Shown here: positions 4,478 through 31,260 of the stretch, piece after piece
Numbering within the stretch: position 1 is the stretch's first letter
Layout of the letters: each line of letters starts with the position of its first letter
Assembly (NCBI RefSeq): GCF_004376175.1
Contig: NZ_SNUY01000019.1
Coordinates: 17,815 to 49,814, forward strand
Source: Halalkalibacterium halodurans
GTDB lineage: Bacteria > Bacillota > Bacilli > Bacillales > Bacillaceae_D
Direction: 5' to 3'
Length of the DNA: 32,000 nucleotides
Made by a program: the position numbers and the translations under genes
The notes under the pieces: model-generated
Told to the model about the DNA's origin: nothing
What the model saw: only the letters and a program-made list of their open reading frames with translations
Database searches by the model: none

Positions 4478-4497
4478 GGAACGTTTTTTCGTATAAT
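4478..4497 (+). promoter_or_regulatory. dinB promoter -10 (TATAAT, 4492..4497) with an abutting degenerate LexA/Cheo-like box
   Basis: GGAACGTTTTTTCG compared with CGAAC-N4-GTTCG matches 8 of the 10 defined positions. A TTTTCA -35 lies 17 nt upstream of TATAAT. Confidence 0.4.
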
Positions 4498-4536: not shown

Positions 4537-5778
4537 ATGGGAAAGGGACGTGTGATCTTCCATGTGGATATGAATAGTTTTTATGCGTCTGTGGAAATGA
4601 CGTACGACCCGTCGTTAAAAGGAAAAGCCATTGCTGTCGCAGGAAGTGTGAAGGATCGACGGGGAATCGTGGTCACGAGTAGCTATGAAGCAAGGGCGAA
4701 AGGTGTGCGATCGCCGATACCGGTTTGGCAGGCGCTCAGAAAATGTCCTGAATTGATCTTGATCCCTCCTAACTTTGATCGTTATCGATCTGCCTCGCAG
4801 AAGATCTTTTCTTTGCTTGAGGAGTATACGCCTTTGGTCGAAAAAGTATCGATAGATGAAGGGTATATGGATGTGACGACTACGATAAAAAAAGTTCATC
4901 CGCTTGAGCTTGCAAAGGAGATTCAGCAGCGAATCCTTGCTGAGATGGATCTTCCGTGCAGCATTGGGATCGCCCCAAATAAATTTTTAGCTAAAATGGC
5001 GAGCGATATGAAAAAGCCCCTTGGCATTACGGTTCTTAGAAAACGAGACATCGCTGAAAAACTATGGTCCCTTCCGATCGAAGAGATGTATGGGATTGGC
5101 AGACGATCAGTTGATACCTATAAAAAGTATCAGCTTCATACAATCGGTGATTTAGCGAAAGCAGATCCTGCATGGTTAGAGAAGAAATTTGGTATTAATG
5201 GGCCGAGGCTTCATTGCCGGGCCAATGGGATTGATGAACGACCTGTGGACCCAGAGGCTGTCTTTCATTTTAAAAGTGTGGGCAACTCGACAACTTTACC
5301 GGAGGACACGACAAATGAGGGACGGTTAACGGACGTGTTGCATCAGCTTTCCCACTCAGTCCATGTACGAATGAAACGAAAACATGTGTTTTGCTATGGT
5401 GTCCAGTTAACTATTCGCTACGATGACCGAAAGACGATTACACGAAGTAGGAAGCTTGAGCATCCGATTCAAGAAAAGGATGATATTTTTACCGTAGCTC
5501 TTTCCTTATGGAAGCAAGCATGGAATGGTCGACCTATCAGGCTTCTAGGAGTCACTGGGTACGATGTGATCGACAAAAAATATGCCTATGAGCCGCTGGA
5601 CCTTTTTCGCTATGAAGAGCAGATTAAGCAGGCGACGCTAGCAGAAACCATTTCATCTATCCATAAACGGTATGGTAAACCGATTGTCGCCAAAGGAAAA
5701 GACTTGGATCTTTTTAAAGAGGTAGATGAAACAAAAAAAGGAACGAGCTTTGACCGAGATTTTTTTCAGCATGATTGA
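4537..5778 (+). CDS. dinB: DNA polymerase IV, Y-family (DinB / PolY1-like)
   Basis: Contains 'IFHVDMNSFYASVE', 'SIDEGYMDVT' and 'SIGIAPNKFLAKMASDMKKP'. The 413-aa length matches PolY1-type enzymes. Confidence 0.95.
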   Translation: MGKGRVIFHVDMNSFYASVEMTYDPSLKGKAIAVAGSVKDRRGIVVTSSYEARAKGVRSPIPVWQALRKCPELILIPPNFDRYRSASQKIFSLLEEYTPLVEKVSIDEGYMDVTTTIKKVHPLELAKEIQQRILAEMDLPCSIGIAPNKFLAKMASDMKKPLGITVLRKRDIAEKLWSLPIEEMYGIGRRSVDTYKKYQLHTIGDLAKADPAWLEKKFGINGPRLHCRANGIDERPVDPEAVFHFKSVGNSTTLPEDTTNEGRLTDVLHQLSHSVHVRMKRKHVFCYGVQLTIRYDDRKTITRSRKLEHPIQEKDDIFTVALSLWKQAWNGRPIRLLGVTGYDVIDKKYAYEPLDLFRYEEQIKQATLAETISSIHKRYGKPIVAKGKDLDLFKEVDETKKGTSFDRDFFQHD

Positions 5779-29687: not shown

Positions 29688-30512
29688 TCATTTCAATTGT
29701 TTAAGCAAGCTTTTTAGCTCGGCTACGTCTTTTCTTAAGGCTGAGATTTCTTGTTTTAACCCATCGGCTTCACCATCTTCCTCATTGTCCGTTAACTCTG
29801 CTTTTTCAACGTTATTGACGATTACACCGATAAACAAGTTAAAGATGATAAACGTACCGATTAAGACAAAGCTGACAAAATAAAGCCAAGACCACGGAAC
29901 TTCGGCAAAAATTGGTCGCATGACGCCGCTCGCCCATGACTCTAGCGTGACCACTTGGAACAATGTTAACAAACTAAGCTGTAAATTACCGAAATATTCA
30001 GGCGACACATGCTGAAATAACATCGTCCCGATAACGGCAAAAATATAGAAGAAAATGCTCATCAAGATTAAGATGTTTCCTAACGCCGGGATCGTCATCA
30101 CCAACGCATCAACTAACCTGCGCAACGATGGAACAACTGAGATGGCCCGTAGTACCCTGAGAACCCGTAAAATACGGAGAACCGTCACAAATTGAGCACC
30201 TGCAAATATATGACCTGCGGCTACAATTAAGAAATCAAACCAATTCCATGAACTTCGAAAAAAAGCTGATTTCGGATTCGAAGCTAAAAAGCGCATCGCA
30301 ATTTCAATCGTGAAGATCCAGAGAAGAACAAGATCTATTCGATAGAATAACCATTTATGATCAGCATAAATACGTGGATAGGTTTCGATTCCAACGATAA
30401 GGGCATTAAAAAGAATTAACGCGATCACCGTAAACGTAAACGCCCGATGATTCACGATTTTTTGCATTTTACTAGTGAAGCTGTTCTGTTTCTGTCTAGC
30501 TTCCATTTTCAA
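29688..30512 (-). CDS. NaChBac: Voltage-gated sodium channel NaChBac (single 6-TM domain, BacNaV family)
   Basis: The 274-aa product matches, from memory, published NaChBac (MKMEARQKQNSFTSKMQKIVN...). It has S4 arginine repeats 'RILRVLRVLRAISVVPSLRRL', the selectivity filter 'TLESWAS' and a C-terminal coiled coil. Confidence 0.97.
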   Translation of the reverse strand: MKMEARQKQNSFTSKMQKIVNHRAFTFTVIALILFNALIVGIETYPRIYADHKWLFYRIDLVLLWIFTIEIAMRFLASNPKSAFFRSSWNWFDFLIVAAGHIFAGAQFVTVLRILRVLRVLRAISVVPSLRRLVDALVMTIPALGNILILMSIFFYIFAVIGTMLFQHVSPEYFGNLQLSLLTLFQVVTLESWASGVMRPIFAEVPWSWLYFVSFVLIGTFIIFNLFIGVIVNNVEKAELTDNEEDGEADGLKQEISALRKDVAELKSLLKQLK

Positions 30513-30930: not shown

Positions 30931-30944
30931 CAAACGTACGTTCT
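30931..30944 (+). promoter_or_regulatory. LexA (Cheo/SOS) box-like site, distal
   Basis: CAAACGTACGTTCT compared with CGAAC-N4-GTTCG matches 8/10 defined positions. The central GTAC fits RNRY. Confidence 0.5.
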
Positions 30945-30972
30945 TGAAATCGAATGTACGTTCGTGTATACT
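30944..30972 (+). promoter_or_regulatory. Strong sigmaA promoter of the WYL-like ORF
   Basis: TTGAAA-N17-TATACT, followed by GAGGTGAG (30988..30995) and the ATG at 31001. Confidence 0.7.
30951..30964 (+). promoter_or_regulatory. LexA (Cheo/SOS) box-like site filling the promoter spacer
   Basis: CGAATGTACGTTCG compared with CGAAC-N4-GTTCG matches 9/10 defined positions. It lies exactly between the -35 and the -10. Confidence 0.6.
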
Positions 30973-31000
30973 GGAGTTAAAGAGAACGAGGTGAGAAGAC

Positions 31001-31225
31001 ATGGAAAAGTTACTCAGACGAAGTGTGCAAGAACAATTAATTCTCGCTGCGATTTATCAATCTTGCTCTGGTGAATTTACGCAGCGAAACCTATTGGTAA
31101 AGTCATTTAACGATACCCATGTGGTGGCATATTGTTTCTTGCGTAAGCAAACGCGTATGTTCAAACGGGATCATTTTTTATCGGTTCAGCCGGATCATTC
31201 AAACGTTTCTCGTCCTGCTTGGTAA
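31001..31225 (+). CDS. 74-aa hypothetical protein with a WYL-domain-like core
   Basis: Has a good RBS and promoter. 'ILAAIYQSCSGEFTQRNLLVKSFNDTHVVAYCFLRKQTRMFKRDHFLSV' fits the WYL-domain pattern (xxYxxxxGexxxRxxxPxxl....xxxAyCxxRxxxRxFrxDrIxs), although the WYL triad position reads HVV. A terminator follows. Confidence 0.55.
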   Translation: MEKLLRRSVQEQLILAAIYQSCSGEFTQRNLLVKSFNDTHVVAYCFLRKQTRMFKRDHFLSVQPDHSNVSRPAW

Positions 31226-31226
31226 A

Positions 31227-31260
31227 CAAAAAGAACCACCTGTTGGTCGATGGTTCATTT
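31227..31260. terminator. Bidirectional terminator (WYL-like ORF / proC)
   Basis: GAACCA/UGGUUC outer stem with an inner CC/GG pair, flanked by AAACAAAAA (read as UUUUUGUUU for proC) and AUUU. Confidence 0.6.

Follow-up and report, generated by a model that had tools for sequence, protein, structure and literature searches.

The window analysed here is a stretch of 32,000 nucleotides (nt) from contig NZ_SNUY01000019.1 of Halalkalibacterium halodurans (assembly GCF_004376175.1), and its subject is BH1502, a small gene that is predicted to be controlled by the SOS repressor LexA and whose product belongs to a family of free-standing WYL proteins, which we call mini-WYL. The open reading frame lies on the + strand at 31001–31225 (ATG at 31001, stop codon at 31223–31225) and encodes 74 amino acids. 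Its product is 99% identical to BAB05221.1 (BH1502, UniProt Q9KCR7), differing by one residue from the C-125 sequence. A promoter scan placed a −35 hexamer TTGAAA at 30944–30949 and a −10 hexamer TATACT at 30967–30972, both on the + strand. Separated by 17 nt, the two hexamers match 10 of the 12 consensus positions, and they form the sole promoter of this kind between 30500 and 31400. The ribosome-binding site, GAGGTG (30988–30993, +), was read off the sequence and lies 7 nt 5′ of the ATG. Two candidate LexA boxes of the Cheo type, with the consensus CGAAC-N4-GTTCG, are found within this promoter region. Box 1, CAAACGTACGTTCT (30931–30944), has two mismatches to the consensus and overlaps the −35 hexamer by one base, its terminal T serving also as the hexamer's first. 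Box 2, CGAATGTACGTTCG (30951–30964), has a single mismatch and occupies 14 of the 17 bases between the −35 and −10 hexamers. The distance between them is exactly 20 base pairs (bp), with box 1 upstream. The initial annotation of this DNA had described a sigmaA promoter, a pair of LexA-like boxes at this distance and a strong ribosome-binding site in front of a 74-residue reading frame, and all of these features were recovered at the same positions.

An AlphaFold2 model of BH1502, built with the family alignment, has a predicted local distance difference test (pLDDT) of 93.2 and a predicted template modelling score (pTM) of 0.77. It consists of one helix (H2–11) and five strands (E14–20, E26–36, E40–45, E50–55 and E59–64). 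When the model was compared by Foldseek with the Protein Data Bank (PDB), the WYL domains of BrxR, CapW, PafBC and DriD came first (probability 1.0, template modelling score for the query, TMq, 0.75–0.80), and the top 16 matches were all WYL domains (TMq 0.71–0.80). At the sequence level, BH1502 aligns with the Pfam WYL profile (PF13280) over positions 5–69 of 70 (20.9 bits, E 3.6e-4). A profile of the whole family finds, among solved structures, the WYL domains of DdPif1 (E 1.8e-11) and SsPif1 (E 3e-10), as well as CapW (E 5.7e-4). The WYL domain takes up residues 1–64 of the 74. No helix-turn-helix (HTH) family was matched by BH1502, and no WCX domain is present in the AlphaFold2 model, in which only about ten low-confidence residues follow the last strand. 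The model thus indicates that BH1502 is almost certainly a stand-alone barrel of the WYL/Sm-like type. An isolated WYL domain with no HTH attached, as had been proposed at first, is borne out by the AlphaFold2 model, Foldseek and the family profile alike.

Relatives of BH1502 were retrieved by an exhaustive HMMER search over 1.84 billion cluster representatives, which gave 120 clusters (50% identity) at E ≤ 0.001. Nearly all of them are 60–100 residues long and aligned end to end. A word-indexed protein search with BH1502 recovered only BH1502 itself. In the phmmer alignment Y19, R29, C45, R52 and L60 are invariant, and the family consensus reads M..LL.RS......EIIY.S..G..TQR.I.V........AYC..RK..R.FK...ILS..P. 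Many homologues have precomputed PF13280 matches, and NCBI gives the name “WYL domain-containing protein” to several, including the syntenic orthologue described below. Annotations of short WYL proteins that stand alone already exist in genomes and phages. Neither BH1502 nor a typical family member had a match in NCBIfam, which places the family, as far as the models go, outside the curated named families (for example, a small SOS protein of the YqzH type). The profile phrog_6785, representing a phage family of unknown function with 396 positions, matches mini-WYL over its positions 31–94 (E 2e-10). From the sequences, this suggests that some phages encode larger proteins which begin with a WYL domain of the mini-WYL subtype. 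A full-text literature search for BH1502 returned nothing, and we found no paper characterising a stand-alone WYL protein or tying the family to LexA.

The GTDB species-representative genomes were scanned with a degenerate DNA pattern derived from the coding sequence only (residues I18-Y19, R29, [YF]44-C45, R52, F54 and I59-L60). The scan gave at least 120 loci; 109 of the matches listed encode family members, each from a different species, and the pattern-scan counts given in the following rest on the matches listed. Among the matches listed, all members are from Bacillales except one from Clostridium, and the groups represented include Bacillaceae, Paenibacillaceae, Brevibacillus, Sporosarcina, Halobacillus, Lentibacillus, Terribacillus and Tumebacillus. 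That the reading frame is conserved in relatives is shown by at least 120 clusters and by a syntenic orthologue in H. ligniniphilum. Judging from these sequences, the putatively SOS-regulated, free-standing WYL module is a conserved and uncharacterised family of Bacillales, present in more than 100 species and furthermore in prophages and plasmids.

The candidate LexA boxes are shared by almost the entire family. In a first sample of 13 other loci, phage and chromosomal, which came from phage BLAST and exact-protein look-ups and predated the pattern scan, all 13 had a Cheo box with zero or one core mismatch, the −10-adjacent box being located 41–59 nt before the ATG, and most had a second box. 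For the pattern-scan loci, boxes were counted in the 120 nt 5′ of the start codon wherever that much sequence was available, which was the case at 107 loci. Of these 107, 104 had a Cheo box with no more than one mismatch in its core, 74 a perfect GAAC-N4-GTTC core and 57 two or more boxes. The background at the same loci was 0.0017 perfect cores and 0.035 one-mismatch cores per equal-sized window. Only three loci were boxless, and two of these (L063 and L065) have a YolD-like reading frame directly upstream on the same strand, so that mini-WYL is probably operon-internal there. The modal arrangement in the family, found at 64 of 117 loci, is GTTC followed by 3 nt and a TAnnnT −10 hexamer, and the BH1502 promoter shares it (GTTC-GTG-TATACT).

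Boxes located 5′ of family genes in other species, 186 in total, were used to make a position weight matrix (PWM), which was run over the whole window. Box 1 was its best site (20.1 bits) and box 2 its second (18.5 bits), the next site scoring 15.1 bits; the median of the family is 19.1 bits. At the sequence level, the LexA operator footprint is a very clean family trait. Together with the boxes of the syntenic orthologue, the footprint (104/107 and 13/13 loci) upholds the LexA-controlled promoter suggested by the initial annotation. It is very likely that LexA represses BH1502 and that DNA damage induces it.

The spacing of the two boxes is a different matter. Elsewhere in the family, a second box is normally found about 30 bp upstream of the −10-linked box or 23–24 bp downstream of it. 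The 20-bp spacing seen in the window is peculiar to Halalkalibacterium, and we rejected “two helical turns” as a family rule. It is also what sets BH1502 apart from the Bacillus SOS promoters, with which it has in common the Cheo operator, the overlap with the core promoter and the multiple boxes. In Firmicutes, SOS promoters typically contain one to three LexA boxes (PMC2248561).

The closest orthologue, WP_017728217.1 of H. ligniniphilum, is 55% identical to BH1502 and syntenic with it. The gene order there is aspartokinase, (IS110), ion channel, mini-WYL, (flavin adenine dinucleotide (FAD) oxidoreductase) and pyrroline-5-carboxylate (P5C) reductase. The pair of channel, for which the Pfam domain Ion_trans is recorded (L142), and mini-WYL is conserved with the window. 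Furthermore, the promoter itself aligns between the two species without a gap. Box 1 of H. ligniniphilum, CGAACTAATGTTCT, has a perfect core. Box 2 consists of its right half (GTTCG) only, and the 20-bp register and the −10 hexamer are kept. In Alkalihalobacillus trypoxylicola a perfect box is fused to the −10 hexamer. Orthologues in related alkaliphiles thus keep the boxes, with the qualification that H. ligniniphilum retains both box positions and just half of box 2. In all searches the nearest relative outside H. halodurans had 55% identity, which indicates a quick divergence of the gene between sister species. Two differences in gene content were seen along the way. An IS110-family transposase (L142 533–1741) is located between the aspartokinase and ion-channel genes of H. 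ligniniphilum, and its FAD-oxidoreductase gene between mini-WYL and P5C reductase has no equivalent at this place in H. halodurans.

The conserved residues of the family bear on the question of a ligand. The ligand channel of WYL domains is marked by conserved basic residues and a frequent cysteine (Makarova et al. 2014), and both are found in BH1502. In a HMMER alignment to DdPif1, R29 of BH1502 corresponds to R464, C45 to C488, R48 to R491, R52 to R495 and K55 to R498. Rety et al. modelled the contacts of DdPif1 with single-stranded DNA (ssDNA) at R464, R491, R495, R498 and R501, and equated them with R470, R501 and R504 of TePif1 (PMC9964779). According to Andis et al., the isolated WYL domain of TePif1 binds ssDNA but not double-stranded DNA, and its R470A/C494A/R501A/R504A mutant does not bind ssDNA (bioRxiv 10.1101/163188). 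All four of these TePif1 positions are retained in BH1502, as R29, C45, R52 and K55. Of the 110 sequences in the pattern-scan alignment, 103 have R or K at position 48 and 77 have K or R at position 55. Because the ssDNA-binding positions of TePif1 are conserved in BH1502, we predict that mini-WYL binds ssDNA or nucleic acid, and give this a slightly better than even chance.

Among characterised proteins, the closest relatives in sequence are the C-terminal WYL domains of Pif1 helicases (TePif1, DdPif1 and SsPif1), which the family profile matches over the whole domain (E 1.8e-11 for the best of them). They have the same R...C...R..R/K channel as mini-WYL, and the isolated TePif1 domain binds ssDNA in spite of having no WCX domain. 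The Pif1 domains are fused to a helicase motor, which they feed with ssDNA, whereas mini-WYL is a separate protein with no enzyme attached and would be under LexA control. DriD, PafBC, CapW and BrxR share with mini-WYL the WYL/Sm fold and the biological context, in which DNA damage or ssDNA is linked to a response. However, their WYL-bearing chains have about 290–330 residues each and carry an HTH at the N-terminus; DriD and PafBC, at least, have a C-terminal WCX domain as well. Both HTH and WCX are lacking in BH1502, and membership in the HTH-WYL-WCX regulators was therefore rejected. DriD and PafBC are moreover LexA-independent sensors that switch transcription on, while mini-WYL would be an output of the LexA circuit.

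In the window, BH1502 is flanked by a divergent gene for an ion-transport channel of the voltage-gated type (274 amino acids, 29688–30512, − strand), which we take to be NaChBac of B. halodurans, and by a convergent P5C-reductase-like gene. It is therefore monocistronic and without a functionally related neighbour. Between the two convergent genes, a terminator scan detected a GC-rich hairpin at 31233–31256. The hairpin was scored on the minus strand; on the plus strand it is followed only by ATTTAT. It is likely a terminator shared by both genes, in which case it would also act on the mini-WYL transcript.

Most copies of the family are, like BH1502, orphans whose chromosomal surroundings are unrelated, and one neighbour is strongly recurrent. 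A YolD-like gene (PF08863) is adjacent to mini-WYL at 19 of the 109 pattern-scan loci; as a rule it follows mini-WYL directly in the same orientation, or it is divergent, with the boxes in the intergenic region between the two genes. The same holds for most phage copies, among them those of phages B13, Mimir87, BMBtp1 and Tadhana. A Y-family polymerase is adjacent or close at four loci. At L081 the order is mini-WYL, polymerase, YolD, and the Y-family assignment is confirmed by Pfam IMS domains. Mini-WYL is followed by a polymerase also at L027, where the polymerase was called by phmmer similarity to that of L081. At L101 the two genes are divergent, and the polymerase matches NCBIfam PRK03103, which we take to be the YqjW/UvrX type. 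L076 has a SRAP/YedK-like gene divergent from mini-WYL, which is followed by a 129-residue protein and, about 360 nt downstream, by a polymerase, again recognised by phmmer similarity to L081.

Other genes of DNA metabolism were found nearby as well. In Terribacillus (L034 and L048), a YolD-like gene is divergent from mini-WYL, followed by a gene of the YqcI/YcgG family and then by an SbcD-like gene (in L034 also an SbcC-like gene), a layout that presumably resembles the LexA-regulated yhaONM region of B. subtilis. In Salirhabdus (L025), an SbcD-like gene follows mini-WYL directly, without an intervening YqcI/YcgG gene. In Bacillus sp. Marseille-P3661 (L015 3512–5549), a divergent pair of YolD-like and mini-WYL genes is located about 700 bp from lexA, between glnA and DUF896/tkt, and thus within the classical lexA neighbourhood. 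H. halodurans C-125 itself has a YqjW→YqjX operon, BH2741/BH2742, elsewhere in the genome (BAB06460/BAB06461; supplement of PMC6511836).

The YolD family (YqjX, YolD and YozL) has been placed in the WYL-like superfamily (PMC4012209). In B. subtilis YqjX is SOS-induced, and members of the family occur in SOS DNA-repair operons with the YqjW/UvrX polymerases, for which they were proposed to be the counterpart of UmuD (PMC4012209, PMC6511836). YolD proteins (PF08863) resemble mini-WYL in being small, stand-alone members of the WYL-like/SH3-barrel superfamily, and are often encoded directly beside it. They differ from it by their length of about 80–120 residues, by an N-terminal extension and by the lack of the R/C/R/K channel motif, which mini-WYL has. 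BH1502 as a YolD protein was considered and rejected: there was no PF08863 match at E values up to 10, and hhalign against the 19 YolD-like neighbours gave a probability of 22.7%. The initial annotation knew of no characterised WYL protein in Bacillus that stands alone and is SOS-induced. This statement can be kept for the mini-WYL family, which is undescribed in the literature that we found. It is too broad with regard to the WYL-like superfamily, to which the SOS-induced YqjX already belongs.

For BH1502 we infer LexA binding, induction by damage, ssDNA binding and a translesion role, and combine them into the following model. In the undamaged cell, LexA dimers on the two Cheo boxes, one filling the promoter spacer and the other abutting the −35 hexamer, would block the sigma-A RNA polymerase. 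Upon DNA damage, self-cleavage of LexA, stimulated by RecA-ssDNA, would free the BH1502 promoter, and the product would be made from the strong ribosome-binding site. BH1502 would then be a free ssDNA-binding module that is present only during the SOS response, nucleotide binding being the less likely alternative. Its places of action could be ssDNA gaps, 5′ tails or the substrates of RecA filaments. There, it might serve as an accessory to, or a regulator of, the Gram-positive translesion module of YolD and PolY2 (UvrX), which in H. halodurans is encoded in trans. A translesion accessory appears as the most plausible role because homologues are repeatedly co-encoded with this module. Taken as a whole, the model of a monocistronic SOS gene encoding a free ssDNA-binding module and translesion accessory seems to us reasonably probable. 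As for a translesion-related role considered by itself, we regard it as a serious possibility with a less than even chance.

Several observations weigh against this model. BH1502 stays below the PF13280 gathering score (21.8 bits) by 0.9 bit, and its “hypothetical” label results from this narrow shortfall. Of the checks by hidden Markov model and by structure proposed for the WYL assignment, the modelled structure confirmed the fold, but the Pfam score did not reach the gathering score. The protein is also atypical of its family, with A16-A17 in place of E-[MI] and with F59 where 109 of 110 sequences in the pattern-scan alignment have I. In DriD, the ssDNA pocket is completed by a linker and the WCX domain (PMC9186387), and because BH1502 lacks these, its affinity may be low without a partner. 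The boxes are inconspicuous when their mismatches alone are counted. In the window of 32 kilobases (kb), 1.0 site with at most one mismatch to CGAAC-N4-GTTCG is expected and 1 is observed, namely box 2; about 14 sites with at most two mismatches are expected and 12 are observed. By mismatch count alone, the boxes are thus within chance for 32 kb, and their significance therefore derives from their position and from the comparison with relatives. Both H. halodurans boxes carry one core mismatch each, so that the tight repression proposed in the initial annotation can only be inferred. The recA operator of B. subtilis has the same GAAT half-site; a full-text search for that sequence gave no match, and the half-site is not used as evidence. 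Furthermore, about 80% of the family loci, including that of BH1502, are orphans with no adjoining YolD or polymerase, which makes the translesion link indirect for BH1502. Finally, no data on expression, LexA binding or ligand binding of BH1502 or its family were found in the searchable literature.

Mini-WYL could alternatively be one half of a split WYL transcription factor. Its free domain would detect ssDNA or a nucleotide and relay this to a separate winged helix-turn-helix (wHTH) protein, adding a second damage-dependent layer under LexA. An HTH is attached to over 90% of WYL proteins (PMC6789036), which is in line with such a partner. A small wHTH gene encoding about 74–85 amino acids, often overlapping, does lie directly downstream of mini-WYL in Brevibacillus (L063 and L065), in the Anoxybacillus plasmid-prophage pBstUI51 (L141 3213–3437) and in P. 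larvae phages such as Tadhana (L019 3167–3424). Its product weakly resembles the N-terminal DNA-binding domain of LexA (TIGR00498, E 0.0057; PF01726, E 0.05), and together the two proteins may form a split WYL and HTH pair at these loci. However, the wHTH gene is limited to six of the 109 pattern-scan loci, besides the Anoxybacillus plasmid and the P. larvae phages. The neighbours in H. halodurans are an ion channel and P5C reductase, with no adjacent wHTH, and the nearest relatives by sequence, the WYL domains of the Pif1 type, do not function as transcription factors. We therefore consider a split regulator unlikely. A broader proposal would be that mini-WYL is either a LexA-controlled part of a translesion mutasome (PolY2/UvrX, YolD and RecA), recruiting or licensing the YolD-polymerase at ssDNA gaps, or a split ssDNA-responsive regulator with a LexA-like wHTH. 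Such a proposal is tentative, and we lean against it. If it were true, mini-WYL would be a new and widespread SOS player of Bacillales, carried also as a cassette by temperate phages.

The mobile copies of the family raise another alternative, that of a prophage-derived “moron”. Acting as a decoy or sponge, mini-WYL would then capture the signals, ssDNA or nucleotides, to which BrxR- or CapW-like regulators respond, or it would modulate prophage induction or anti-phage defence. Homologues are indeed located in the lysis–integrase moron region of temperate Bacillales phages and in plasmid-prophages, integrases were found near 9 genomic loci, and phages have many short stand-alone WYL proteins. 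The patchy distribution of the family and the fast divergence between sister species described above would fit as well. In Halalkalibacterium, B. sonorensis/B. haynesii and Mesobacillus/Rossellomorea, however, the gene has a stable chromosomal position without mobile-element genes, and the recurrent neighbours of the family are DNA-damage-tolerance genes rather than defence systems. PADLOC gave weak, generic WYL matches only for BH1502, and hence no assignment to a defence system. A function as a moron seems quite improbable to us.

The Sm fold brings to mind a small Hfq-like RNA-binding protein, which would be induced by damage and have RNA as its target. Hfq proteins do appear among the Foldseek matches of BH1502, with TMq values of about 0.67–0.70, and DriD binds single-stranded RNA too, although more weakly than ssDNA (PMC9186387). 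Yet the Hfq proteins rank after the WYL domains, which outscore them in structure as well as in sequence. The conserved residues are those of the WYL ssDNA channel and the neighbours are DNA-repair genes, so an Hfq-like protein is very improbable. That BH1502 is a functionless chance reading frame behind chance promoter-like and LexA-like matches, as the chance-level mismatch counts of the boxes and the merely hypothetical annotation in H. halodurans could suggest, is effectively refuted by the size of the family (at least 120 clusters at the 50% level), the conserved residues shared by its 109 pattern-scan members from different species, the high-confidence structure model, the near-universal conservation of the boxes and the syntenic orthologue.

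Our preferred reading is thus that of a free ssDNA-binding module made in the SOS response, and it is relevant in several respects. In larger regulators and enzymes, the known function of WYL domains is to sense ssDNA or nucleotides. Here, the sensor domain stands alone and would be itself an output of the LexA circuit. The role of YolD, like the make-up of a Gram-positive version of Pol V, has yet to be settled (PMC6511836), and mini-WYL offers a concrete and testable candidate partner for this question, being conserved, co-regulated, co-encoded and predicted to bind ssDNA. With its 74 residues, it is also a minimal WYL domain that should be useful for the biophysics of ligand recognition. 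For the predicted SOS regulon of Bacillaceae, it represents one well-supported addition. The finding is solid and unexpected, but the function is a prediction, and both of its building blocks are familiar.

A few minor observations concern further genes of the family loci and of the window. A conserved protein of 119–129 residues is encoded directly 3′ of mini-WYL at 8 loci (L052, L096, L077, L107, L122, L106, L119 and L076). It had no match in Pfam or NCBIfam, and the possibility of a divergent YolD or WYL protein was rejected, as the hhalign probability was below 1%. The reading frame downstream of mini-WYL in AP45 had no Pfam match. In the window, a DNA polymerase IV of 413 amino acids is encoded at 4537–5778 (+), as indicated by a match to NCBIfam PRK01810 at 2.4e-199, which we take to be the PolY1/YqjH type. 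The polymerase gene is about 25 kb away from the mini-WYL gene, and their closeness is probably coincidental. About 45 nt 5′ of its ATG, at 4478–4491, there is a weak Cheo-like site, GGAACGTTTTTTCG, with two mismatches and a PWM score of 11.8 bits.

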